Of a stretch of DNA of 64,000 nt, positions 1,434-31,820 are shown in pieces. Source of the stretch: an uncultured Gammaproteobacteria bacterium. GTDB taxonomy: Bacteria; Pseudomonadota; Gammaproteobacteria; CAWCPV01. Position 1 is the first letter of the stretch; each line of letters opens with the position of its first letter. The stretch is taken from contig CAWCPV010000004.1 in NCBI GenBank assembly GCA_963797555.1, positions 768,001-832,000 of the forward strand, given 5' to 3'. The position numbers and the translations under genes are program-made. The notes beneath the pieces are model-generated. The model saw only the letters and a list, made by a program, of their open reading frames with translations. It searched no databases and was not told the DNA's origin.

Positions 1434-1908
1434 TCGGCACCACCTTCCCGAGATCGAGCGTCGCAGTATCGCCCGTGACCGTCTCGAACACCACCTTCAC
1501 CTCCAGCTCGCGGATGTTGGAACCGGGGCTGGTCAGCCGCCCGTCCTGCAACTGCACATCGACGATGCGCCGCACCCGCGGGTCCTTCTGCAGCAGCGTG
1601 ATCACGGCGATGCGGATGCGCTCCTGCACCATGATCGGGACCGTCTCCTCGGCAATGGCGTTGAGCCCGTCGAAGCCGAAATCCACGTTGAACACATCAC
1701 CCGTGAGAGGTGTGGTGAGGGCCACGGTGAGCGCCTGCCCGAGGTTCTCCATTCCCTCGGTCAAGGCGAAGTCGCGCGTCATGCCGTCGCCGCTCGGCGC
1801 GAGCACCAGATCGCGCCCGAGGTCCAGCGCGCCCTGCGTGGGCGCGCACAGGAGGCCGAAGCCAAGCAGCCTGCGCCGCAGAATGGCACGTTCGCGTTCG
1901 GCATCCAT
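1426..1908 (-). CDS. gp25/GPW-like baseplate wedge (sheath initiator)
   Basis: 160 aa. GMENLGQALTVALTTPLTGD..FGFD...DPRVRRIVDV is typical of the gp25/GPW family. Lies between spike and baseplate J. Confidence 0.8.
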   Translation of the reverse strand: MDAERERAILRRRLLGFGLLCAPTQGALDLGRDLVLAPSGDGMTRDFALTEGMENLGQALTVALTTPLTGDVFNVDFGFDGLNAIAEETVPIMVQERIRIAVITLLQKDPRVRRIVDVQLQDGRLTSPGSNIRELEVKVVFETVTGDTATLDLGKVVPNG

Positions 1909-3825
1909 CAGCTGCCCCTCCCTCTGACGTCCATCACACCGTCGGTCTCGACTATCACGTTCCCCTTGGAGTCGAAGGTGATGTCCTCTCCCGCCACGAA
2001 GTGCAGCTTCTTCTTGGATTCAATGGTGATGTTCCCGTCCTGATCGATGACGATCTTGGACCCACTGGCGTGTTCAATGCTCACATGTTCATTGGCGGCG
2101 GCGGGGCGCGTGCCAGCCCGTTGCAGCTTGTCCGCACCCACGCGCACGGTGAACTTGCCCACCTCGATAACGCGGTTGCCGTCGGCGTCGATCAGGTCGT
2201 TGGTGGCCTTGCCGCCCGGCTCGTTCAGCTTCTTGTCGTCGGCGACCTGTTGGCGATCGGCCTCAGGAATGGCGGCCGGCAGGACCAGCCAGTAGTCACC
2301 GGGATTGGACGCGGGCGCCTGGCCCCGCTCCCACAGCGCCCCGATGTCGATAAGGTCGTCGTCGTCGCCGTTGCGGTGGGCAAGGAGCACCCGCATCCCC
2401 GGGTAGCGCGGCAGGACCAGACCGAACTTGCCCCAGGCGAACGGCGAGGCGTACGGTGCGGCATTGAAGTGACTTCCCCGGTCATCGAAGGCGAGTCGCG
2501 CGGCCGCGTACGGATAGCCGTCGTCGGCCACGAGGCCGCGCCAGAGCTTCTCGGTCTGTGCCGGGAGCTGTCCCCCGTTGGCGTTGGTGGCGCGCACCTG
2601 GCCCACGTCGAGGCGCCGTCCGCCCCCTTTGGCGGCGTGTTGACGGACCAGGCCCGCGAGCTCCCCTTCGGGGCTGTCGTCGTGCTGCGCCGGCTCGGGC
2701 ATGGCCGGCCCTTTGGGCGACCCGTGCTCAAACCAGCCTTCAAATTTCCCCGGGGGTCCGGAAGGGATGGCGACGCCGCGAAGCAGGGTTATGAAGGCGG
2801 ACTCGCGGGACAGACGGTGGTTGACGCCGCGCACGTACATTCTGGTCTTGGTGGCCGCGAGGACCTCGGGCACACCGAGTGCGAAGCTCACCGCCGACCC
2901 CAGCTCATCGGTCTCGTCGGGAGGACGGTTGAACTCGACGAAGTCGCCCGGTTTGATGTCCGGACGCCCGCGCAGGGTCAATTCGAAGACATCGCGCTTG
3001 CCGGCATCCGGGTTGCCCGGGTCTTCGGGTTCCTGGCCGCGACTCTCGATCTGGATGAGCCCTTCGTCGGCGCCGATCTGGAACGTCTTGCCGACCAGCC
3101 GCAGCCGGTCCGGGCCCATGTACAGCAGTCCATCGCGGATGAGGTACATCCCGAGGCCGAACTGCCCGGTTTGCTGCTCCATGGCCGCACCAAGCTCGCG
3201 CAGGCGCTCTACGCCTATCTCCCCTTCGGACCAGCTCCGCTCGTCGTTGTTCAACCTCGGAGGAGGGCGTCTTTTCCTGCGACAGGGAGTTCACCCTGAG
3301 CAAATGAGTGATTTGCGCCGCCGCCTGCAGGCTGTCGGCCTCCGTCCCCATCTGGGGAATAGGCTTCAGCAGCTTGTCGTAGACCAGGTCGCGCGCCTCG
3401 ATCACGACCTCGTAGCGACGCGCCCCCGCGCGCCGCTTGAGCGATGACACGCGCAACACTGCGACCAACGAGTCGTCGGGCGGCTCGTCGCCCTGCAGGG
3501 TGTCGGTGAGCCCGGCGAGGTCCACCAAGTAGCCCACCGGCCCTGCATCGCGCCAATAGAGGCGAAGGTTCGCCACCAGGTTCGCGCGCGCCTTGTAGAG
3601 CTTCGCATAGTCCTCGCTGCTCATCCCCTCGATGACGAAGGTGTAGCTCCCGCCGTCCAGGGTCCCCGGCAGGGTGGCGTCGATCGAGGCGTAATAATCC
3701 GACGAGCTAAGCGCCGCAACGCGCTCATTCTTGATATCCTCGGGCTTGACGTCCAAACCCTGGGACACCTCGCGAAACTCGATGTGCCACGCCGCGTGGA
3801 CGCCGACCTTGGGGATCGCGCTCAC
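1908..3825 (-). CDS. VgrG-like baseplate hub-spike fusion (one frameshift at ~3255-3290)
   Basis: GTG at 3825 overlaps the upstream stop (GTGA). The N-part is in the frame of ORF 2905..4311 and the C-part is ORF 1908..3254. The C-part has a gp5 OB-fold-like GLVLPRYPGMRVLLAHRNGDDDD..IGALW and a beta-helix-like tail (SGSKIVIDQDGNITIESKKKLHFVAGEDITFDSKGNVIV). Confidence 0.75.
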
Positions 3826-4418
3826 GGCAAGTAGCCTCCACGCGGGCTGATTGTCGCGCCCGGAATACCGATGGCCGACTGCGAGAGCGCCGTGTTGCGG
3901 GCCGCCACGTAGGGGTCGATGGGTGCGAGCGGGAACGCGCTCGTCCCCCTGTCGACACGCCGCCAAGCCACCTCCACGAACGAGCCATAGTTGCCCGGTC
4001 CGCGCACGCAGCCGGCGTGGAGCAGCCAGCCGGCGACGTACAGGTCGATCACCGTGCGGCCGCCGTCCCCGTCCGGGATCACGCGCGACAGGCCCGCGGC
4101 CAGCGGGATCGCCGCGAGCGTCGCGCGCCCCTGGCGGAGGAGCAAGCGGATGGCTGGACGCTCCAGCGGATCGGCGCCGCGGGGCGCGCTGTGTACCTGA
4201 GTCTCGTCGATGGCCGCGCTCACCACGGCTTCCGGATCGGCCTCGCGCCAGAACGCCGCGAACCCTGTGGGAACCAAGAGTACCAGGCTCAGATCCGATT
4301 CGAGCGGCCACTGAAAGGGGACGCCGCGCGTGAGTTCCTGCCGCGACCGGGTGAAGCCGGCCGGGATCGCGATCGGTTCCTCGGGGGTGAGGAACCGATC
4401 CATCGGCATTGGCGTCAT
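3822..4418 (-). CDS. Hypothetical baseplate-module protein (plug-like by position)
   Basis: About 198 aa from ATG 4418, translationally coupled to the hub-spike gene. The function is assigned from position only. Confidence 0.45.
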   Translation of the reverse strand: MTPMPMDRFLTPEEPIAIPAGFTRSRQELTRGVPFQWPLESDLSLVLLVPTGFAAFWREADPEAVVSAAIDETQVHSAPRGADPLERPAIRLLLRQGRATLAAIPLAAGLSRVIPDGDGGRTVIDLYVAGWLLHAGCVRGPGNYGSFVEVAWRRVDRGTSAFPLAPIDPYVAARNTALSQSAIGIPGATISPRGGYLP

Positions 4419-4434
4419 GACCGGGCCCACGGCG

Positions 4435-4977
4435 TCACCTCGCGAAGTCCGCGAGCGCTCCCACGGCCAGCGGGGCGGCGTCGAGGACCTTGGCGAGAAC
4501 GCCGGGGCGTGGCACGTGCACCAGCGATATCGACACATCGAGCACGTCGCGCCGGGCCGCCGAGGCAGTGAACGTCAGCGACTGGATCTGCATGTCGGTG
4601 CGGATCGTCATCGAAGTGACCAGCGTCAAGCCCGACACCGCGCCGCCGGTGATGCGTTCGATGGCCGTGCCGCGCTTGCTCAGATCGGCCATGGTCTCGA
4701 GCATGAACTTGAAGGTGAAGCGCTGCGGGCCGACGAGCAGTCCGCTCAAGCTGACGGTGTCGTCATGCGCCGCCACGATCATCCGTTCTTGCGATGGCCC
4801 GATCGGCGGCAGGTGGTACGACTCGGAGAGAGACATGGACGTGACCGCAAACAAAGGCACGAAGAGCGGGGTGACAATCGCGGGCACGGGCGTGAGGGCT
4901 TGAACCGCAAGCTGGACCGGGTCCGCCAGCACGGCCGAGGGCACCGCCGTATTCAGGAAACTGCTCTCAAGTGGCAT
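4435..4977 (-). CDS. Dit-like / tube-initiator-like baseplate protein
   Basis: About 180 aa, beta-rich (SMSLSESY...VSLSGLL...LTLVTSMTIRTDMQIQSLTF...LDVSISLVHV), resembling tube-fold Dit/gpU-type proteins. Lies upstream of the hub. Confidence 0.5.
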   Translation of the reverse strand: MPLESSFLNTAVPSAVLADPVQLAVQALTPVPAIVTPLFVPLFAVTSMSLSESYHLPPIGPSQERMIVAAHDDTVSLSGLLVGPQRFTFKFMLETMADLSKRGTAIERITGGAVSGLTLVTSMTIRTDMQIQSLTFTASAARRDVLDVSISLVHVPRPGVLAKVLDAAPLAVGALADFAR

Positions 4978-5023
4978 CACATGCCGCCTTTCGCCCGCGT
5001 TACCCTGCACCCATGGGATTGCC

Positions 5024-5386
5024 TCACTCCGCCTTCAACCGATCGTGCACGCCCGCGCCCGCCGCGATCGTCCCCGGCGGAGTCCCATTCGTGGTTCCGC
5101 CTGGGGGATCGATGACGACGAACTCGCCATCGACCTTAAGCTTGGTAGCTTTACCCGACGTTACTTCCGACACGGCGGTGCACTTCACCTGGCCCGCATC
5201 CTCCTTGTTCTGGCAGGCTGAAATGGTCGCGGTCGCGACGAGAATGTTCGCCGTAGTCAGGACCTTATGGCCGTCCACCTTCAGCCTGCCGACGCCGCTC
5301 TTGGACAGCGTGCCCCCGTGCGGAGCCGGCTGCTCGGGCGTGGCCACGCACTTCAACACCGTGTCCTCAGTGAGCACCTTACCCAT
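5024..5386 (-). CDS. PAAR-like (DUF4280-type) spike tip protein
   Basis: 120 aa with C..(x)n..HGG, KVDGHKVL, two further Cys and KLKVDGEFVV, a PAAR-like Zn-binding tip pattern. Confidence 0.7.
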   Translation of the reverse strand: MGKVLTEDTVLKCVATPEQPAPHGGTLSKSGVGRLKVDGHKVLTTANILVATATISACQNKEDAGQVKCTAVSEVTSGKATKLKVDGEFVVIDPPGGTTNGTPPGTIAAGAGVHDRLKAE

Positions 5387-5783
5387 CAGCGTTACCTCTT
5401 TCGAGCCATTCGATGATCAGACGTGGCAGTGGGCCGAGGAGTGGGGCCTCGGCCGGCCACTTCCCCAGCTGCACTTGAATTACTTGCCCGCCGTTGGGCT
5501 TGCGCCAGTAGCTGGTGCTCATGGCGTACCGGTCGCCTCCGGCGTCCTCGCCGATCCGGATGGCCCCGCGAAAACCTCGAGGTGTCCACGTTCCCTCGAC
5601 GGGACGCAGCTCCGACACGCCATAGAGGGTAATGTCCGCTGCGGGGATCGAGAGCCCATCCGTGAGCTCGAGTAGCGCACTCGGTTGATTGGGGAGGCCC
5701 ACGCCGGCCCGGTCTTCGCCGTTGTAGCTCCGTAGGAGAGCAGAGCAGCAGGGTCTCGCCGTATAGCTGGTGATCGCCATCAC
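5379..5783 (-). CDS. SUKH/SMI1-KNR4-like immunity protein
   Basis: 134 aa. LP....LLELTDGL.I....LYGVSEL...IRIGEDAGGDRY matches the SMI1/KNR4 (SUKH) pattern. Directly downstream of a putative nuclease toxin. Confidence 0.65.
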   Translation of the reverse strand: MMAITSYTARPCCSALLRSYNGEDRAGVGLPNQPSALLELTDGLSIPAADITLYGVSELRPVEGTWTPRGFRGAIRIGEDAGGDRYAMSTSYWRKPNGGQVIQVQLGKWPAEAPLLGPLPRLIIEWLERGNADG

Positions 5784-5792
5784 GCTTCCTCG

Positions 5793-8700
5793 CTAGTTGA
5801 AACTCACAAACGGTAGCGTCGCCTCGAAGGCGTTCCGGTACTCGGTGAGTTCGGCCTCGGTGATATCGCCGCGCTTGAGGGCCCGCTTGATCACGGCGTG
5901 TTCGAGCGCCGGTCGCAGCCGCCCCTTCACATCCTCAATGACCTGCCGCATCACGGCCGGATCGTTGACATCCGAGATCTTGAGCCGGCGTGCCGCCGCC
6001 GCGGCGATTTCCTGGCTGCGAATGCGCCAGTCGATCGACTCAAACGCGCGAGAACTCCCAGTCAACATCCGGCGCTCCGTCACCTCGATGACGATGTTGG
6101 TCGCCAGCTGGCGGACCGCGTCGTCTCCGAGGCTGCGCAGCCGATAGATTTCCTTCACCTCGACGCGCCGAGTCAGGGCTGCACTGGGACGGAACACGCG
6201 GAAGTCCGACACGCGCAACTCTCCACCGGCAGACAGACCCGGGTCTTCGAACGCCAAGTGGGCGTCCGGGAAGCGGTCCAGTTCCTTATTGGCTGCGAGC
6301 AGGACGCCAACGACAGCCTTGTACTTCTGAGGTACGTTGCCGGTGAGATCCGGGATAAGTCTGCCCAGATCTAAGGAGCGCGGCGCCAGCCGCTGCAATG
6401 ACTCGAAGATCCCCACGACTTGCTGTGGTTCGAAGTTGTGAAAGACGCGTAGCGCCTTGCTGGCGGTCGTACCCGATCGCAGCTCGAAGAAGATCTCCAG
6501 TCCCTCGTTCGCCTGCGGCGAGAAGCTCGCCAACGTGCGCAACGCCTTCTGCACGTCCATGAACCACTCGCCGGTTTCGATGGGAGAAAGCAGCTTGGCC
6601 AGCGTCGAGGCGTTGCCGCCGCGCTCGAGAAAGCGGCTGAATCCCTCCATTTCGGCGGTGTGCTGTGGTCCCAGGAAGCGGCCGATCCCCCGCAAAAGCC
6701 GCTGTGCCGTGCGCTGGCTGCGCTGGGCGACGGTCGTCAGTTGTGCCACGAACTTCGCGGTGTCGGGCTGTCCCTGGATCACGTGCAGTGCGCGGCGCTG
6801 CGCTTTAACGTCGTATCCGCCGACGATGGCGTCAATCGATGGGGGAGGCACGCTCGGGCGGCCGGGCAGCAGCAACAGAGGCCGGTCCATACCCGCGCCG
6901 GTCAACCGGAGGACGCCACCGCCCGTATCGGTCACCTCATAGCCTGCCCGACGGAATCGCACCATCATCTGGTCTGCGCTTTGCGCAGGCACATATGGGT
7001 TGTATTCGAACGCCTCCGGTCCGACGGCGACCAACTCGTGGACCACTTCCGATGGCGCAGGGCGCGTCCGCGCCGCCCCTGCCCCTGCGGAGGGTGGCTG
7101 CGAGTTGCGGACGATCTCGGCGTACTGCGCGACTATCTTCGCCAAGGCACCCACACGCGAGCGGCTGAGGCCCAGTGAGGCCAAGGCTTCGTCGGAAAAG
7201 TTCTTGCCCGCCATACGCCCGAGCACCTCTTCGAGCTCTGGCAGGATTGTCAGCAAGCGTTTCTTCAGCGATGCGTGTTGTGCGTCGTCTGGCCCACTCG
7301 GACCGATTCGGCGAATCTCGTCGAAAATGGCAGCGCCTTCCTGGCGCACGCGATCGAACCGGGCCAAGAGTTCGTCCTGGATATTCAGCGCACGCAACTG
7401 CTGGCGTAGGCGCGAGCCACCGAGGAGCGCACCGGTCGCCGACAGCACCACGCTGGAGAACATGAATGTCTCCATGTCCTCCGGCATGTGGCCGGTTTGG
7501 ACAAGCGTCAAGCCCAGATTGATGCCGGTGCCCACCGCCGCGTCGGCGCCCAACACGATGCTGAGCTGCGCTAGATCGCGCCCAGGGGCAAGGTAGCGTC
7601 CAAATGCCACGAAGCGGACGTTAAACCATCGGAATAGGAACCCGAAGGCCGCATTTTCACTGAATGAGACCAGCACGTCTCGGGCGCTCACCTCCTCGTG
7701 CAGAGCGACGACCTGTCCGAGCGTCGTCACAGCCGTAAACGTTCCGGCTCCAATCAGCGTGGTCTCGGTGGCGGTCAAGCCCAACGCGCCTTCGGCGATC
7801 CCTGCGACGCCCCAGGTCACGACCATCGCGACAACGGTGATTCCAAGGCGAACCCAGAACTTCCGTTTGTTGCGTCTGACTTCTTCCTCTGCCTTGTCGT
7901 TTATTTCTTTGACCAGCTCATCGAGGCGCTGCTGCCACCCCTTCATCTTGTCTGGCAGGTTGGCGTAATCAGGGTGTTCAAGCTCGCGCTTGACCCCAGC
8001 GATGATGGGGTCGGTACGCCGCCACCAACTGACGTGATCGTCGACATCACCGATGTCGTGATCGATTGCCCAGTCCGGCAACTGCAGCGCGCCGTGCCAG
8101 AACGTCATCAGGGATCGCTTTACTTCGAGCTCGCCGAGCTGTTGCCGCAGCTTGCCGGCTAACACGAGATAGGGCTCACCACGGCCGTGCTTGCCCGCGT
8201 TTGCCACTTCGCTCCCCAGTGCGCCGACCTGCTGTAGGAGCTGATTGAGTTTCGTGTTGAACTTGGTGTATGCGTTGTCGTGGCCGACCCCCATCACAAA
8301 GATGGGGATCAACGTCACCTGGTAGGTCAGCTCTTTGATTCCCGCTGCGACATGCTCCAGCCGCTTGTCGGCGGCGAGCCCCTGCCAATCCGCATAAAAT
8401 GCGTCCGCGTCTTTCAGCAGTTTGTCGATCGGATCCTTCCGGAACGGCGATGCGCGCAACGCATCGATGAGCACGTCCAGATAGCGCGAGCGAGCCTGCA
8501 ACAGGATCTGTACCTCCTCCAGGTTGTCAGCCTCCTGTCCTGCACTGAGTCGATACAGCAGCAGCCAATTGTCAATCTCGCGCACCTTGGCCAGTACCGC
8601 CACCAAGACCTGGTAGTATGCGAGTAACTCTTCCTGTGGCACGAACGTGCTTATGCCTTGCTTGCCGCTGGCGAGCGCCGCCAGCAGCGCGGGATAGCGC

Positions 8701-9689
8701 CACAGATCGATGCGATTCAGTGCCTTGAAGATCACATCCTCGGTCTTCTCTTCCGCGGTGATCAGGTAGCCCTGCAGATGCAGTCGCGCAGTGGCGATCG
8801 GATCGAGGAGCGCGACGATACGCCGGAAGCCTGGAATGCGGCGCTCCAATTCGCCCGTGAGCCACGCGGCTTCGGGCAACTCTCCGGCCAAATGGATTGC
8901 GTCGGCGGCAATGTCGAGAGACTGGGCGGCTTCTTGGATCGCTTGCTTGTCTTTATCGATACGCCTGATCGCACCTTCGGAGAATTCGTAAACACGTGCG
9001 ATCGCCGCAGCGCTCCCTGTCGAGGCTTCCAGCAGCAGCTTGCGGAACTTCGCTGGGTTGCGCTTGGCAAACGCGCGCAGGATTTCCACGTTCAGGGGAT
9101 CGGCGGGATCCCGCCCCGGTCTCGTCCGTGTTCCGCTCAAGATTCGCTGGAACAGACTGCCGTCGTCTTTGACAAGTTGCGCGACCGTCGTGCGAATCAG
9201 TGTGAGCTGTTCGTCGGAGAAATCGCCAGGTTGCCGGGCACGCTTGACGATCAGGAGCTTCGGCGTAAGGTCCTTTTTCGGCTGATAGCTGGGAATGAGG
9301 TAGCCGTCGCCGTCGAGCGTCCATCGATGCTCGTCGACCCGTTCGCGAATCTCGTCCGGCAGTACAGGGGGCGCCGTGACCGCGGCGCGTACGAAGTCGT
9401 ACAGGTGTGCACTGGAGGCGGCACGTGAGAAGGTCTCTTTCACCAGCGCTTCGATATCGGCGCGGACCGCCGCCGATACCCGGTCGAGCTCGCCACCGGT
9501 CCAGACGACTTTGGGTTCCCAGAGACGGATAGTCGCATATCCGCCGCGCCGCGCGAGGACGACATCCCGCGAGCTGGCGAGAGCCCGTCCGGCGGCAGAG
9601 GCGAGAGCTTCTGCGATCACGTCGCGCCGCTTCGCGAGGCCCGTCGCGTTGACCCGGATGCGGGTTGGAATGATCACGCTCACGGGCAT
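5793..9689 (-). CDS. Large putative effector/polymorphic toxin: helical N-region, hydrophobic membrane-insertion region, C-terminal PD-(D/E)xK nuclease-like domain
   Basis: 1298 aa. A coiled coil precedes the hydrophobic FWVRLGITVVAMVVTWGVAGIAEGALG...GAGTFTAVTTLGQVVAL (~7700-7860). The C-terminal FE...RVSDFRV...VEVKE is a restriction-endonuclease-fold motif. Followed by a SUKH-like gene. Confidence 0.65.
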   Translation of the reverse strand: MPVSVIIPTRIRVNATGLAKRRDVIAEALASAAGRALASSRDVVLARRGGYATIRLWEPKVVWTGGELDRVSAAVRADIEALVKETFSRAASSAHLYDFVRAAVTAPPVLPDEIRERVDEHRWTLDGDGYLIPSYQPKKDLTPKLLIVKRARQPGDFSDEQLTLIRTTVAQLVKDDGSLFQRILSGTRTRPGRDPADPLNVEILRAFAKRNPAKFRKLLLEASTGSAAAIARVYEFSEGAIRRIDKDKQAIQEAAQSLDIAADAIHLAGELPEAAWLTGELERRIPGFRRIVALLDPIATARLHLQGYLITAEEKTEDVIFKALNRIDLWRYPALLAALASGKQGISTFVPQEELLAYYQVLVAVLAKVREIDNWLLLYRLSAGQEADNLEEVQILLQARSRYLDVLIDALRASPFRKDPIDKLLKDADAFYADWQGLAADKRLEHVAAGIKELTYQVTLIPIFVMGVGHDNAYTKFNTKLNQLLQQVGALGSEVANAGKHGRGEPYLVLAGKLRQQLGELEVKRSLMTFWHGALQLPDWAIDHDIGDVDDHVSWWRRTDPIIAGVKRELEHPDYANLPDKMKGWQQRLDELVKEINDKAEEEVRRNKRKFWVRLGITVVAMVVTWGVAGIAEGALGLTATETTLIGAGTFTAVTTLGQVVALHEEVSARDVLVSFSENAAFGFLFRWFNVRFVAFGRYLAPGRDLAQLSIVLGADAAVGTGINLGLTLVQTGHMPEDMETFMFSSVVLSATGALLGGSRLRQQLRALNIQDELLARFDRVRQEGAAIFDEIRRIGPSGPDDAQHASLKKRLLTILPELEEVLGRMAGKNFSDEALASLGLSRSRVGALAKIVAQYAEIVRNSQPPSAGAGAARTRPAPSEVVHELVAVGPEAFEYNPYVPAQSADQMMVRFRRAGYEVTDTGGGVLRLTGAGMDRPLLLLPGRPSVPPPSIDAIVGGYDVKAQRRALHVIQGQPDTAKFVAQLTTVAQRSQRTAQRLLRGIGRFLGPQHTAEMEGFSRFLERGGNASTLAKLLSPIETGEWFMDVQKALRTLASFSPQANEGLEIFFELRSGTTASKALRVFHNFEPQQVVGIFESLQRLAPRSLDLGRLIPDLTGNVPQKYKAVVGVLLAANKELDRFPDAHLAFEDPGLSAGGELRVSDFRVFRPSAALTRRVEVKEIYRLRSLGDDAVRQLATNIVIEVTERRMLTGSSRAFESIDWRIRSQEIAAAAARRLKISDVNDPAVMRQVIEDVKGRLRPALEHAVIKRALKRGDITEAELTEYRNAFEATLPFVSFN

Positions 9690-26861: not shown

Positions 26862-27980
26862 ATGACGAACTTTGTGGCCGAACATCGCGCACGCAGCGCG
26901 CACCGCGTCAAGGTCTTCGCGATCGTAGTCACGAGCCTGTTGCTGGGGGCGGGGTGCGCGCGAGAAGAGAAAAAGCCCGAGGACATTCGGCCGGTGAATG
27001 CCGCGCGGGTCATGGAGAACTCCGCCGCGGTCGTGTCGGACTATGCGGGCTACGTGGAGCCCCGCTACGAAATGCCCCTCGCTTTCCGTATTTCAGGCAA
27101 GCTCCTGGAGCGCGACGTGGACGTAGGCGCCTTGGTCAAGCGCGGACAGCTATTGGCACGGCTCGACACCGCCGACCAGGAAGCCAATGTCGCCTCCGCG
27201 CGAGCCCAGGTTCTCTCGGCGGAATCCGACTATGGTCAGGCCAAGGCTGACTACGAGCGCTTTCGGGAGTCGTTCGCAAAGAAGTTCATCAGCGCAACCG
27301 AATTCGATCGCTACAAGACTGCATACAGTGTCGCCGCGCAGCGCGTCGAGCAGGCCCGCGCTCAGCTCAAGCTGACCGAGAACCAATCGGCGTATACGAC
27401 GTTGACGGCCAACTACGACGGGGTTATCACCGCGACCAAGGCAGAGGCGGGCCAGGTGGTGTCCGTTGGAGAGACGGTCGTGACGCTGGCGCGGCCGGAA
27501 GAGAAAGAGGTCGCGATCAGCATACCGGAGAACCGCCTGGGCGAACTCGGCGCGGCCACGGATATCCGGGTGAGCTTGTGGGTGAACCCCAGCCGGTACT
27601 ATAAAGGGAAGCTTCGCGAAGTCTCGCCGATCGCGGACGACGTCACCAGGACCTACCCAGCGAAGGTCACCCTAGTCGACCCGGACGACGCGGTCAAGCT
27701 GGGTATGACTGCCACCGTGTTTCTCACCAGGCCGGCGCCGCCGCATGTTGTGCAGGTGCCGTTGACCGCGTTGTACGAGCGCGATGCCCATCCTTTCGTC
27801 TGGGTGATCGACTCCCAGAAGGGGGTAGTCAAGCTCACTCCCGTCACTGTCGGCAAGTACCTCAAGGATGCGGTGACCATAACCTCCGGGCTGCAGCCTG
27901 GGGAACTGGTGGTAAGTGCAGGCGTCGACAAGCTGATCGACGGACAGAAGGTGCGAGTGCTCCCCGAGGACTGGCGATGA
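26862..27980 (+). CDS. RND efflux periplasmic adaptor (MFP), lipoprotein
   Basis: Lipobox-like GAGC, LAFRISGKL..RDVDVG, lipoyl and alpha-hairpin pattern. AGGAG RBS before ATG 26862. Confidence 0.93.
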   Translation: MTNFVAEHRARSAHRVKVFAIVVTSLLLGAGCAREEKKPEDIRPVNAARVMENSAAVVSDYAGYVEPRYEMPLAFRISGKLLERDVDVGALVKRGQLLARLDTADQEANVASARAQVLSAESDYGQAKADYERFRESFAKKFISATEFDRYKTAYSVAAQRVEQARAQLKLTENQSAYTTLTANYDGVITATKAEAGQVVSVGETVVTLARPEEKEVAISIPENRLGELGAATDIRVSLWVNPSRYYKGKLREVSPIADDVTRTYPAKVTLVDPDDAVKLGMTATVFLTRPAPPHVVQVPLTALYERDAHPFVWVIDSQKGVVKLTPVTVGKYLKDAVTITSGLQPGELVVSAGVDKLIDGQKVRVLPEDWR

Positions 27981-30900
27981 AGCAGTTCAACCTCTCCGAG
28001 TGGGCGCTGGAGCACCAGTCGCTCGTCCTCTACTGCATGATCGCGCTATTTGCCGCTGGCATGTACGCCGTCCACGGTCTGGGTGAGGCGGAAGACCCGG
28101 ACTTCACCTTCAAGCTGATGGTGGTGCAGACGATGTGGCCCGGCGCCACCACCACGCAGGTGGAGCAGGAGATCACGGACCGCATCGAAAAGAAGCTGCA
28201 GGAGACGCCTTGGCTGGGATCTGTCCGTAGCTATTCCAAGCCTGGCGAGTCGACGATCTTCGTGGTGCTGAAAGAGGCCGCTCCACCGAAGGACGTGCCC
28301 GAAATCTGGTACCAAGTGCGCAAGGAGGTGGGGGACATCACGTCTACGTTGCCCGACGGCGTGCAGGGGCCGTACTTTAACGACGAGTTCGGGGACACCT
28401 TTGGCAACGTATATGCCTTTACCGCCGATGGATTCTCCTACGCACAGCTTAAGGATTACGTGGAGGACGTGCGCAAGGAGATCCTGCGCGTCCCCGATGT
28501 CGCCAAGGCCGACCTCGTCGGAGTCCAGGAGGAGCGCATCTACGTCGAAGTGTCCCAAAAAAAGTTTGCCAACCTGGGGATCGATCCGTACCACTTCTTC
28601 GACGATCTCAAGAACCAGAACGCGATGACGCCAGCGGGCCACTTTGACTCCCCGTTCGACCGCTTCTACGTTCGTGTCACGGGCGCCTTCGATTCCGTGG
28701 ATAAGATTCGCGAGATCGGCATCCGGGCGAATGGGCATCTGTTCCGCCTCGGCGATATCGCCCGTGTTTACCGCGCCTACGTCGATCCGCCCGTATTCAA
28801 GATGCGTTACATGGGCCACGATGCGATCGGGCTCGCAGTGTCGATGACGAAGGGTGGCAACATCGTCGAGCTCGGCGAGAACCTCCGTAAGGCATTCGAT
28901 GGCATCAAGGCGAACATGCCCCGCGGCATCGAGGTGTATCAGGTCTCGAATCAGCCCTTGGTGGTTCAACGCTCGGTCAATGAGTTCTTGGAGACGCTCT
29001 TAGCGGCGGTCGTGATCGTCCTCGCCGTCAGCTTCCTCAGCCTGGGATTGAGGACGGGGCTCGTGGTCGCGACCTCGATACCCCTCGTGCTGTGCGTGAC
29101 TTTCCTACTGATGTGGCTTTACGGCATCGACCTGCAACGGATCTCCCTCGGCGCCCTGATCATCGCACTGGGGTTACTGGTCGACGATGCCATCATCGCC
29201 GTGGAGATGATGGCCACCAAGATGGAGCAGGGCTGGGAGCGCAAGAAAGCGGCAAGCTTCGCCTACACGTCCACAGCATTTCCCATGCTCACAGGAACCT
29301 TGGTCACCATTTCAGGTTTTCTGCCGGTGGGCCTCGCAAGGTCTTCGGCTGGCGAGTTCACTTTTTCCCTCTTTGCCGTCGTGAGCATCGCGCTGCTGGT
29401 GTCATGGGTGGTCGCCGTTCTTTTCACGCCTTACATCGGCTACAAGATCCTTCCCGACTTCAAACCTAGGCCGGGGCACGACCACAACGTCTACCAACGG
29501 CCGTTCTATAGGGGTTTTCGTCGCGTCGTGACCTGGTGCGTAACGCACCGCAAGCTGGTAATCCTCGTTACCGTAGGGGTCTTCGCGCTGGCGCTGTTCG
29601 CCTTTCGTTTCGTGCAGGACCAGTTTTTCCCCCCTTCCAATCGACCGGAGCTCATCATGGATTTGAGGCTTCCTGAAGGAGCCTCTTTCGCAGCGACGGA
29701 GCGCGAGGTCGAGCGAATGGAAGGATTGCTTAAAGGCGATCCCAACATCGTCAACTACGTAGCTTACGTCGGCGGCAACACGCCGCGCTTCTACCTGCCT
29801 CTCGACCAGCAACTCAATCAGATCAACATCGCTCAGATCGTCATTCTCGCCAAGGACAACAAGGCGCGGGAGGCAGTCAACGATCGCCTGCAGAAAGTCC
29901 TCGCGGACCAGTTCACCGGCCTGCGCGGGCGCATCAACCGCCTCGAAAACGGACCGCCTGTGGGCTATCCCATACAGTTCCGGGTGAGCGGCAAGGATCC
30001 GAATCTGGTACGGCACTATGCTGAAGAAGTAGCCGCCGTGATGCGTCGGAATCCACATGCGCTGAATGTGAACCTCGACTGGAATGAGCGCACCAAGGTG
30101 ATCAAGCTGAACATCGATCAGAACAAAGCGAGGGCGATCGGGATCGACTCGCAGGATCTATCCGCCGTTTTGAACGCGATCCTCGTCGGCTATGACATCA
30201 CGGAGTACCGGGAAAAGGACAAGCTGATAAAGGTCGTGGCGCGCGCGCCAGCCAACGAGCGCGTCGATGTTGCGGACTTGGGCGATATCACAGTGCCCAC
30301 GTCAAGCGGGAAGTACATTCCTCTGGCTCAAATTGCGAAGCCTTCGTACGAGTTCGAAGACGGCATCATTTGGCGGCGTCAACGACTGCCGACCATCACG
30401 GTCCGTTCCGACATCTTCGGAGACATCCAGGCGCCTGTGGTCACGGCGCAGATCAATCCGGAGTTGGACCCCATCCGGGCCAAGCTCCCCGAGGGCTATT
30501 ACATCGAGGTGGGAGGCGCCACCGAGGACAGCGCCAAGGCCGGGGCGTCCATCGCCGCCGTCATGCCGCTGATGGTGTTGGCGATCATCACCGTGCTGAT
30601 GATTCAGCTTCAGAGCTTGCAGCGGACGTTCCTGGTGCTGTTGACTGCTCCCCTCGGTCTGATCGGCGTGGTGGCGGTCCTGCTTGTGTGGAACGTTGCC
30701 TTCGGCTTTGTCTCCACACTCGGGGTAATCGCCCTGGCTGGCATGATCATGCGCAACGCGGTCATCTTGATCGATCAGATTGAACAGGACCACAAGAGCG
30801 GGCACTCGCACTGGGACGCCGTGGTCGAGGCGACCGTGAGGCGTTTTCGACCAATTATGCTCACCGCCGCTGCCGCGGTCCTGGCTATGATCCCATTGAC

Positions 30901-31042
30901 GCGCAGCAACTTCTGGGGACCCATGGCGGTCGCTATCATGGGCGGGCTGCTCGTAGCCACGGTACTCACGTTGCTCTTTCTGCCCGCACTCTACTCGGCT
31001 TGGTTCCGGATTAAGAGGCCCGAGGCGCAGAGTGGCCAGTGA
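27977..31042 (+). CDS. RND efflux permease (AcrB family, MexK/TriC-like)
   Basis: 1021 aa. FNLSEWALEH, EDPDFTFK, GLLVDDAII, RFRPIMLTA. Confidence 0.96.
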   Translation: MKQFNLSEWALEHQSLVLYCMIALFAAGMYAVHGLGEAEDPDFTFKLMVVQTMWPGATTTQVEQEITDRIEKKLQETPWLGSVRSYSKPGESTIFVVLKEAAPPKDVPEIWYQVRKEVGDITSTLPDGVQGPYFNDEFGDTFGNVYAFTADGFSYAQLKDYVEDVRKEILRVPDVAKADLVGVQEERIYVEVSQKKFANLGIDPYHFFDDLKNQNAMTPAGHFDSPFDRFYVRVTGAFDSVDKIREIGIRANGHLFRLGDIARVYRAYVDPPVFKMRYMGHDAIGLAVSMTKGGNIVELGENLRKAFDGIKANMPRGIEVYQVSNQPLVVQRSVNEFLETLLAAVVIVLAVSFLSLGLRTGLVVATSIPLVLCVTFLLMWLYGIDLQRISLGALIIALGLLVDDAIIAVEMMATKMEQGWERKKAASFAYTSTAFPMLTGTLVTISGFLPVGLARSSAGEFTFSLFAVVSIALLVSWVVAVLFTPYIGYKILPDFKPRPGHDHNVYQRPFYRGFRRVVTWCVTHRKLVILVTVGVFALALFAFRFVQDQFFPPSNRPELIMDLRLPEGASFAATEREVERMEGLLKGDPNIVNYVAYVGGNTPRFYLPLDQQLNQINIAQIVILAKDNKAREAVNDRLQKVLADQFTGLRGRINRLENGPPVGYPIQFRVSGKDPNLVRHYAEEVAAVMRRNPHALNVNLDWNERTKVIKLNIDQNKARAIGIDSQDLSAVLNAILVGYDITEYREKDKLIKVVARAPANERVDVADLGDITVPTSSGKYIPLAQIAKPSYEFEDGIIWRRQRLPTITVRSDIFGDIQAPVVTAQINPELDPIRAKLPEGYYIEVGGATEDSAKAGASIAAVMPLMVLAIITVLMIQLQSLQRTFLVLLTAPLGLIGVVAVLLVWNVAFGFVSTLGVIALAGMIMRNAVILIDQIEQDHKSGHSHWDAVVEATVRRFRPIMLTAAAAVLAMIPLTRSNFWGPMAVAIMGGLLVATVLTLLFLPALYSAWFRIKRPEAQSGQ

Positions 31043-31166
31043 GAAGGGCGTGCACACTCCGATTATGAGCGGCCGATGCTCTCGGCAAGGTTCCACGAAT
31101 GCTTCTAGCGGGCGTGTCCAGGGCCAACCCTCGGAGACGCGGCTCACCACGGTGGAATCCACCCAA

Positions 31167-31820
31167 ATCGAGCCGACCGGGGTAGCGGTGGGTAAATAGG
31201 GAGGTGGAGGTTTGGCTAGTTGTTCATGACTCTCCACTATTGTTCATTGCCTCACTCGAGGAGACGGGACCATGACAGAAGAGAGAGCTTCAGGGGTGAT
31301 GTCAGATACCGTAGTGCGTTTGTTTGGCAGGGGTGAGGCGTTTGACTCCGAAGGGTTCATCGGTTTTTTCACCGACAAGCCGATGTACCAGTTTGGTAAT
31401 GGCGAGCCCTGCTTGAACAAAGCGGCCATCAAGGCTTCGGTGGACAACTTTTTCGGTAGTGTGGCGGCGCTCTATCACGACATCAGGAACCTGTGGGAAG
31501 TAGGGGATGTGGTGTTTGTCGAGATGGACGTGACGTATTGGCGCAAAGACGGGACGTCCATCACCTTGCCTTGCTGCGATATCTTCCGGTTCTCGGGCGA
31601 CCAAGTGGCGGAGCTGCGTATCTTCATGGATGCGAATCCTGTGTTTGACAAGTCCATGGTGGTGTCCGCCTCTGCGTCGGTGATGACGGTGAGCGAAGGC
31701 AAGCGGGTGACGCCGCCCGGGACGATGAGGAAGTATTTTGCTGAGCATCCGGAGGGGATCGCCAGGGCGACCCACGGCTTCCCCCCCAAGTGGTCTATCG
31801 CAGGACCGAAATGGCCGATA
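31167..31820 (+). repeat. 654-bp direct repeat, copy 1
   Basis: Appears identical to 32163..32816 (offset 996 bp), from ATCGAGCCGACCGGGG to GAAATGGCCGATA. Confidence 0.95.

Follow-up and report, generated by a model that had tools for sequence, protein, structure and literature searches.

A candidate nuclease-tipped effector with a putative SUKH-type immunity partner in a phage-tail-like contractile injection cluster of an uncultured gammaproteobacterium

Contractile injection systems (CISs) are engineered for protein delivery, and what marks a protein as their cargo is still poorly understood. Tape-measure-like CIS effectors with a C-terminal nuclease, sometimes with an immunity gene, are already known from publications of 2024-2026. 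In this study, we analysed a 64,000-nucleotide stretch of DNA (the window; contig CAWCPV010000004.1, positions 768,001 to 832,000) from an uncultured Gammaproteobacteria bacterium, in which a set of minus-strand genes is, as recognised here from the genes alone, a phage-tail-like CIS cluster. Its largest open reading frame (ORF; 5793-9689, minus strand) lies where an earlier, sequence-only reading of the window had placed it and encodes a protein of 1298 amino acids (aa). We hold, with reasonable if far from complete confidence, that this protein is a polymorphic-toxin-like CIS cargo or effector with a nuclease tip and a SUKH-type immunity partner encoded downstream. What is new relative to the published systems is the kind of nuclease fold, the kind of N-terminal module, the evidence of tip swapping, and the position of the cassette in its cluster.

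Tme (BN159_7576) is a tape-measure-related effector of 2247 aa from the Streptomyces davawensis CIS, for which nuclease activity has been demonstrated and which co-purifies with tip, spike and tube initiator (Nagakubo et al. 2024, PMC11126660; for this and the other papers cited, we refer to the portions of text consulted). Like Tme, the 1298-aa protein is encoded by the largest ORF of its cluster, just ahead of the baseplate genes, has predicted transmembrane helices and ends in a nuclease-type domain, and the Tme cluster type is spread across distant phyla, as here (PMC11126660). Among the features by which Tme-like proteins are recognised, greatest length and synteny just upstream of the baseplate genes were found in our protein, but the N-terminal DUF4157 domain of Tme was not: the Pfam scan returned no eCIS_core (DUF4157) match for it. 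The Tme nuclease is EndA-like (DRGH/H-N-N) whereas that proposed here is of the PD-(D/E)xK type, the likeness to Tme is one of described features, and the consulted portions of the article describe no immunity gene for Tme (PMC11126660).

Also comparable are the Sle1-type effectors, with the RS14790/RS14785 pair of Micromonospora eburnea (Nagakubo et al. 2026, PMC13277306). Like the protein studied here, they are modular CIS cargo related to tape measures, whose C-terminal functional domains are unrelated, and one growth-inhibiting C-terminus, presumed to act on nucleic acid, is neutralised by the product of the next gene downstream (PMC13277306). In contrast to our locus, genes of the Sle1 type are located upstream of the sheath gene, and a small DUF4157 protein, Sle2, is their partner, of which we see no counterpart next to our gene; they also have a helical hairpin instead of a large hydrophobic block, and, in the text consulted, were surveyed in Actinobacteria (PMC13277306). 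In loci of extracellular contractile injection systems (eCISs), proteins combining DUF4157, a long linker and a toxin have been described, often with no immunity gene (Geller et al. 2021, PMC8213781). This layout, also that of the AlgoCIS cargo Cgo2 (bioRxiv 10.64898/2026.05.27.728243), is shared by the six of 36 relatives of the 1298-aa protein in which Pfam detects eCIS_core. The 1298-aa protein differs from that class in having an 'IPTRIR' N-terminal domain instead of DUF4157, and the core genes of its cluster escape the Pfam eCIS models.

The case for a nuclease tip comes from residues 950-1298 (349 aa), for which a search of 1.84 billion representative sequences returned 74 relatives at E ≤ 1e-3 and 52 at E ≤ 1e-10, nearly all matches being located C-terminally in proteins 1200-1450 aa long. 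The sequence-only reading had noted an E...D...EVK motif at about 6150-6260, and we located it at 6153-6251 (minus strand, codons checked) as the catalytic-type motif F1147-E1148 ... R1159 ... D1162 ... E1177-V-K1179. Across the 59 sequences covering the core, F1147 and D1162 are kept in all, R1159, E1177, K1179 and W1221 in 58 each, and E1148 in 56; the motif columns are invariant or nearly so in 36 full-length relatives, and relatives keeping the catalytic-type residues reach down to approximately 25-30% identity. Judged from these alignments, conservation of the motif exceeds chance.

Structurally, an AlphaFold2 (AF2) model of the C-terminal 349 aa, built from a 42-row alignment, is confident (predicted local distance difference test (pLDDT) 95.3, predicted template modelling score (pTM) 0.90). 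It consists of a helical bundle (model residues 3-166), a helix (171-190), strands (195-230), a further helix (240-258) and a strand (270-274), giving a core topology of alpha-beta-beta-beta-alpha-beta around a central mixed sheet, with D213, E228 and K230 of the model on successive, adjacent strands. On this basis we delineate a helical 'pre-toxin' subdomain (residues 950-1119; 6333-6842, minus strand), which corresponds to the helices at model residues 3-166, and a restriction-endonuclease-like, PD-(D/E)xK core (residues 1120-1298; 5796-6332, minus strand). When the model was compared with known structures by VIA-align, most of the 50 best rows were, by entry title, PD-(D/E)xK nucleases matched over model residues ~150-349 at Z 4.7-6.9, values below 8 that may reflect merely a common arrangement. 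Among them are AF1548, BstEII, a Hachiman component (HamA), SfsA, two CdiA-CT toxins, Bax1 and Avs3, as well as Cfr10I, NucS, TnsA, McrC, Can2, FokI and type II restriction enzymes. Because this list of folds coincides with a conserved motif placed on the right structural elements, we accept, for the predicted model, the restriction endonuclease (REase) fold that the sequence-only reading had proposed: the predicted fold is confident, the PD-(D/E)xK-like core is matched at modest Z and the motif runs through the whole family. The domain would then be expected to cut nucleic acid. A nuclease tip with a confident predicted fold that escapes every Pfam, NCBIfam and PHROGs model is of interest in itself; none of the Pfam Tox-REase models matches the domain, and phmmer and hmmsearch against PDB sequences gave chance-level matches only.

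Systems in which restriction-endonuclease-fold tips are paired with SUKH immunity proteins were reportedly described as polymorphic toxins by Zhang, Aravind and co-workers in 2011/2012. They are similar to our locus in having a constant body, a swappable C-terminal toxin and a small downstream gene, and PD-(D/E)xK toxins of CdiA-CT type are among the structural matches above (PDB 4g6v and 4g6u, Z 6.3 and 5.0). They differ in their route, polymorphic toxins using contact-dependent inhibition (CDI), type VI (T6SS) or type VII (T7SS) secretion and the delivery proposed here being by a tail-like particle. Comparison of homologous loci for swapped C-termini had been named in advance as a check, and swapped C-termini were found. 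In the closest relatives the N-terminal ~945 residues are conserved and the C-terminal ends differ. Two of them, P0075 and P0078, share 83% identity over 427 aa up to '...RLRFE' and are unrelated beyond it, P0075 terminating in Pfam Ntox4 (39.1 bits, cut-off 25) and P0078 in a third kind of C-terminus that it has in common with P0005. All three retain the 'pre-toxin' subdomain despite the different tip. Two further relatives, P0006 and P0007, were dropped as evidence for tip swapping; their C-terminal parts look frameshifted or out of frame. By sequence comparison, the layout is that of a polymorphic toxin, with a constant body and unrelated C-terminal toxin domains among close relatives.

The point at which bodies and tips part, '...RLRFE', coincides with the F-E pair at which the nuclease motif starts in our protein (~6246-6260 in the window). 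Tips may therefore be exchanged by recombination within the nuclease domain and not at the conserved junction motif LLLLPGRPS (residues 938-946; 6852-6878, minus strand) that precedes the C-terminal region.

These tips bear on a reading in which the 1298-aa protein is purely structural, a tape measure whose C-terminal domain is a plug or an inactive relic and whose 134-aa neighbour is an assembly factor. Gene position and size would suit such a protein, as would the lack of an immunity-like gene beside distant relatives. They are outweighed in our view by the catalytic-type residues, kept in 56-59 of 59 sequences even at low identity, by the Ntox4 tips of close relatives and the AHH tip of a Streptomyces canus protein described below, and by the eCIS_core fusions in 6 of 36 relatives, and we regard a purely structural role as very improbable. 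An effector is preferred because of the same observations: the motif and fold, the Ntox4 and AHH tips, and eCIS_core in 6 of 36 relatives.

Upstream of the toxin region, the body has two recognisable parts. The N-terminal domain (residues ~1-140; 9270-9689, minus strand), with 'IPTRIR' and 'Y-x-IPSY' motifs, is a candidate particle-docking or loading module. An 'IPTRIR'/'FPIRLR'-type motif lies within the first 21 residues of 28 of 45 long relatives, some of the others being N-terminally cut or starting with an eCIS_core domain, and at least one strongly hydrophobic segment precedes the C-terminal domain in all 45, a set selected throughout for possession of that C-terminal domain. In the window's protein, the Gly/Ala-rich hydrophobic block that the sequence-only reading had seen at ~7420-7860 was recovered as residues 610-760 (7410-7862, minus strand), with Kyte-Doolittle segments at residues 610-639, 645-664 and 709-731 that are predicted transmembrane helices. 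Language-model comparison of residues 1-949 with the Atlas gave scores below 0.9 throughout, a PT-TG cluster at 0.82 being too weak for use.

Taken as an effector, the protein would be docked to the particle by the N-terminal domain of ~100-140 aa, while the long middle region and hydrophobic helices would let it reside in the tube or exit from it, and enter a membrane, followed by the helical pre-toxin domain and a PD-(D/E)xK domain predicted to cut nucleic acid. As has been proposed for Tme, the effector may also act as tape measure of the tube. The nuclease tip would be neutralised by the 134-aa protein, most likely its immunity partner and of presumptive SUKH/SMI1 type. Shared with an AHH-toxin protein of a related cluster (described below), the N-terminal domain is a candidate for the module by which effectors without DUF4157 are loaded or docked.

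The candidate immunity gene (5379-5783, minus strand; 134 aa, or 133 aa if translation starts at the ATG at 5780) is translationally coupled on both sides. The sequence-only reading had it begin 9 bp downstream of the effector gene, and this is the distance from the 1298-aa stop to a GTG, with 12 bp to the ATG; a Shine-Dalgarno-like site, GAGGAAG, precedes the start, and at its stop the gene shares 8 bp with the beginning of the next ORF, of 120 aa (ATGGGTAA). The SMI1/KNR4 (SUKH) family is said, in work by Zhang and colleagues from 2011, to provide mostly immunity to nuclease toxins. Comparison of language-model features with the Atlas gave, in the four rows listed for the 30 nearest clusters, only clusters named SMI1/KNR4, at a score of 0.94, with 168-180 of 256 features shared and set counts of 7, 7, 6 and 10 that sum to 30. 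Against an SMI1_KNR4 profile built from 17 domains in genomes of the same phylum, hhalign placed 'FRGAIRIGEDAGGDRYAMS' of the 134-aa protein onto the core motif in the matching position with a score of 20.2 (P 0.007) at a probability of just 5%, while 16 controls (five other proteins of the cluster, ten shuffles and the reversed sequence) scored at most 13.6. With hmmsearch --max the 134-aa protein scored 8.3 bits and the controls at most -1.2 bits. Searches of PDB sequences yielded chance-level matches, and a tblastn match on the S. canus plasmid introduced below (L017, E 0.003) was rejected as chance, since it falls on the strand opposite a primase gene. Prediction of a complex between the C-terminal domain and the 134-aa protein scored 0.00, a value obtained without controls that is evidence neither way.

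Of the SMI1/KNR4 pattern claimed by the sequence-only reading, the language-model neighbours and a weak hhalign match speak in favour, and neither a Pfam or NCBIfam match, nor a usable fold, nor a homologue came to its support. From its sequence, the 134-aa protein probably has a SUKH-like fold. That it is the immunity partner of the 1298-aa effector is plausible, and we rate this somewhat lower than the fold because a role as chaperone or adaptor is still conceivable. In that role it would shield the hydrophobic block or link the effector to a tip protein of 120 aa, and its gene does lie between the effector and the tip-like gene, coupled to the latter; it is also without homologues in a word-based search. 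Effectors of the T6SS with transmembrane segments need dedicated chaperones. Since the listed language-model neighbours are all SMI1/KNR4, however, we consider a chaperone or adaptor quite unlikely. A SUKH-like neighbour, if true, would point to bacterial targets, a question that is open for most eCIS toxins according to the part of the literature consulted (PMC8213781).

Another possibility is that the nuclease acts on its producer and not on competitors: the particle would remain in or on the producing cell, and the protein would insert in that cell's own membrane and process DNA, for instance to release extracellular DNA or in programmed cell death. Tme offers a precedent, being located in the cell envelope with a nuclease that underlies the producer's phenotypes, as the consulted text has it (PMC11126660); the hydrophobic block is conserved and most of the relatives seen have no immunity gene beside them. 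On the other hand, a SUKH-like gene directly downstream and swapped tips are marks of antagonistic polymorphic toxins, and we see an action on the producer as unlikely.

Several results weigh against the reading of the locus as an effector-immunity pair, besides the modest Z values and the low hhalign probability given above. At the level of the nuclease-like domain, Foldseek found no match of the model in the PDB at E ≤ 1e-3, and the domain's sequence had no Pfam, NCBIfam or PDB-sequence match. For the 134-aa protein, no Pfam family was found at E ≤ 10 and no NCBIfam family at E ≤ 1, the PF09346 search of the genome did not pick up its ORF, a word-based search of 5.8 billion proteins returned no homologue, and a single-sequence AF2 model had a pLDDT of 39.7, too low for use. 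The effector itself is without eCIS_core, as noted, and the cluster ORFs that were scanned include no AAA ATPase, whereas cargo loading in AlgoCIS requires one, according to the portion of that study consulted (bioRxiv 10.64898/2026.05.27.728243). Of the distant loci, two (L007 and L008) were readable, and neither has a small immunity-like gene after the relative. Taken together, the effector interpretation of the sequence-only reading holds for the nuclease-like fold, the hydrophobic block, the swapped tips and the tail-like cluster, and is weaker for SUKH and for a PAAR protein downstream, a label without support from hidden Markov models (HMMs).

The setting of the gene was compared with a cluster on a Streptomyces canus plasmid (NZ_CP109336; L017), which is collinear with that of the window at identities of 29% for the sheath, 41% for the tube, 36% for the small post-tube ORF, 39% for the Dit-like, 45% for the VgrG-like, 39% for the gp25-like and 31% for the baseplate J proteins. 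The S. canus cluster is without the 1298-134-120 block at the corresponding place. At its 3' end it instead encodes a 1313-aa protein with a C-terminal AHH nuclease (30.3 bits, cut-off 22.3) and hydrophobic stretches visible by eye. Alignment of our family profile (A2) to this protein by hhalign gave a probability of 97.2% (E 3.2e-11, residues 15-100), and on that account we take the N-terminal domain to be common to both. The 1313-aa protein thus resembles ours in N-terminal domain, hydrophobic stretches and C-terminal nuclease toxin; it differs in the toxin, which is of the AHH (HNH/EndoVII) type, in its place at the cluster's 3' end and in that no counterparts of the 134- and 120-aa ORFs were found. 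The AHH gene closes the S. canus cluster (27866-31807), with no clear ORF in the next 780 bp. Upstream of that cluster (L017:11336-13216) lies a gene for a 626-aa Endonuclease_NS protein, of the same nuclease family as the Tme C-terminus.

The place of the gene varies further in other loci, following fibre-like genes in a metagenome fragment (L003) and an ATPase gene in an Anaerolineae locus (L008). By gene order, the 1298-134-120 block reads here as an accessory block inserted between the tube and baseplate modules, in the slot expected of a tape measure. That slot raises the possibility of a dual function, an evolved tape measure that would set tube length during assembly and occupy the lumen with the C-terminal end at the spike, and that would leave first when the particle contracts, delivering the nuclease. 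Such a role would extend the effector reading and does not oppose it. The ORF is the largest of the cluster and stands between the tube and 88-aa genes and the Dit-like and baseplate genes, the classical tape-measure place; no other long ORF of the cluster resembles a ruler, the Pfam CIS_TMP family matches nothing in the genome at E ≤ 1, the S. canus cluster is also without another obvious ruler, and Tme was argued to be tape-measure-derived on like grounds, in the text consulted (PMC11126660). Against this, a profile search found no tape-measure homology in Pfam, PHROGs or solved PDB chains, the gene shifts its place as just described (S. canus 3' end, L003, L008), and the protein contains folded globular domains. 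We hold a dual function to be possible, though only tentatively. The sequence-only reading had itself allowed for a tape measure fused to a toxin; this stood in so far as the protein comes close to published tape-measure-related CIS effectors (PMC11126660, PMC13277306, both as consulted in part), and not in homology, the canonical tape-measure families (Pfam CIS_TMP and phage tape measures) giving no HMM match. That one effector family takes the tape-measure slot, the 3' end or the place behind an ATPase gene in different clusters bears on whether tape-measure-like effectors still measure.

More speculatively, and with greater doubt than attaches to the dual function, these proteins may form a phylum-spanning class of giant CIS effectors, in which an N-terminal 'PIRLR' domain of ~100 aa would replace DUF4157 as the ticket to the particle and the protein would double as tape measure. 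Tips of two PD-(D/E)xK types, Ntox4 and AHH would recombine at a fixed junction, 'RLRFE', within the nuclease domain, and an effector-immunity-tip cassette would here have moved into the tape-measure slot of a horizontally acquired cluster.

The cluster itself, roughly 18 kb in size, starts directly after the housekeeping gene xseA (13277-14788) and reads, on the minus strand, 315-aa ORF, 388-aa sheath, 146-aa tube-like, 88-aa, 1298-aa, 134-aa, 120-aa and 191-aa Dit-like genes, continuing with a 238-aa ORF, a VgrG-like region and ORFs of 160, 475 and 763 aa that extend beyond the window's left edge. The sheath gene (10498-11664) gave weak Phage_sheath_1 and PHROG sheath matches and has 716 homologues, some carrying PF04984 or PF10758. 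The tube-like protein (10045-10485), with no HMM match, is 41% identical to the S. canus ORF that follows the sheath gene there, and the 88-aa ORF between it and the effector gene (9767-10033) is 36% identical over 36 aa (E 3e-4) to a 62-aa post-tube ORF of S. canus. Past the inserted block, the first gene (4435-5010) encodes a 191-aa candidate baseplate or tube-initiator protein with a weak Dit_like match, 39% identical to an S. canus ORF of 167 aa that is itself weakly Dit_like. No significant Pfam, PHROGs or NCBIfam match was obtained for the 315-, 146-, 88-, 1298-, 134-, 120-, 238-, 160- and 475-aa proteins. The tail-like setting proposed by the sequence-only reading was nevertheless borne out by the sheath and Dit_like matches, the sheath homologues with sheath Pfam domains and the collinearity with S. 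canus. A prophage tail was rejected, no head or terminase genes being adjacent and housekeeping genes flanking the cluster, namely xseA, guaB and guaA on one side and glycogen and phosphoenolpyruvate (PEP) carboxylase genes on the other.

The 120-aa ORF (5024-5386, minus strand), called PAAR in the sequence-only reading, contains two 'KLKVDG' repeats, and from sequence a PAAR-like tip is an unconfirmed possibility. It had no PAAR-family HMM match, its only Pfam match was at chance level (E 0.21), NCBIfam gave none, and tblastn found no counterpart in the S. canus cluster.

With regard to base composition, the claim that the cassette is more AT-rich than its surroundings was borne out only marginally. 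The 1298-aa and 134-aa ORFs have a GC content of 62.6% and 64.2%, below the 66-67% of most flanking structural genes, but the tube gene is lower (62.1%) and the window mean is 64.0%. At third codon positions (GC3), the two ORFs have 0.76 and 0.73 compared with 0.81-0.88 in their neighbours. The minimum (59-60%) lies at 7500-9000, in the N-terminal half of the effector gene and not at the toxin/immunity end.

The origin of the cluster was approached through the sheath, which has at least 716 homologues. The best 120 of these, the window's own protein at 100% aside, are 58-93% identical and bear source names from Myxococcota, Planctomycetota, Cyanobacteria and Actinomycetota, and a sample of 400 genomes from the phylum to which the window belongs yielded no sheath of this kind. 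Likewise, no relative of the 1298-aa protein was found in 60 class-level genomes or in 400 genomes sampled from the phylum. Cross-phylum sheath matches combined with the absence of both proteins from the same-phylum samples suggest that the cluster was acquired horizontally, and that its type has been widely spread by horizontal transfer. The sheath family is unusually conserved across phyla. Viral contigs searched with the sheath protein and two alignments (A4 and A10) gave nothing, a profile search of genome contigs for the 1298-aa family confirmed no locus, and a metagenome scan returned one N-terminal fragment, the L003 homologue mentioned above.

In the Anaerolineae metagenome-assembled genome (MAG; L008 with L015), the relative carries eCIS_core and follows an AAA ATPase gene where a canonical eCIS locus ends. 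That locus comprises sheath, tube, gp25-like, Baseplate_J and Tail_P2_I genes, and two further eCIS_core proteins are encoded downstream, past a low-GC island. In an Acidobacteriota MAG (L007), a second effector, which combines a leader of DUF4157 type with a PT-HINT domain, begins 10 bp after the relative. This gene (L007:3246-7501) opens with 'QPGDEHEREADRVA', a leader typical of DUF4157 effectors, appears frameshifted, and runs into a PT-HINT-containing ORF (6113-7084) that is followed by an ORF of 131 aa. The arrangement resembles an array of effectors that may include an immunity gene.

The window's genome (G000) also contains, in the L005, L006, L012 and L013 regions, two more sheath genes above the Pfam cut-off and two eCIS_core (DUF4157) proteins, one ~7 kb from the sheath on contig C13. 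These additional eCIS regions lie at G000:C13:54902-62310, G000:C3:37817-38059 and G000:C2:265033-265221, and the genome probably has canonical eCIS loci beside the divergent cluster of the window.

A few minor observations concern reading frames and insertions. On the minus strand at ~3250-3990, the GC3 signal shifts from the frame of ORF 2905-4311 to that of ORF 1908-3254 near 3300-3400, without a proper stop or start, a possible frameshift in a gpD/VgrG-like gene. The PEP carboxylase gene is split over two ORFs in L002 (2030-3598 and 3681-4997), and the assembly probably carries indel errors. Directly after the stop of the Anaerolineae relative comes the low-GC island (L008:13320-15990), with a GC content of 46-51% compared with 61-72% on either side. 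It codes for a protein of 481 aa carrying an SPPY-type methyltransferase motif and another of 327 aa, and looks like an inserted restriction-modification pair.

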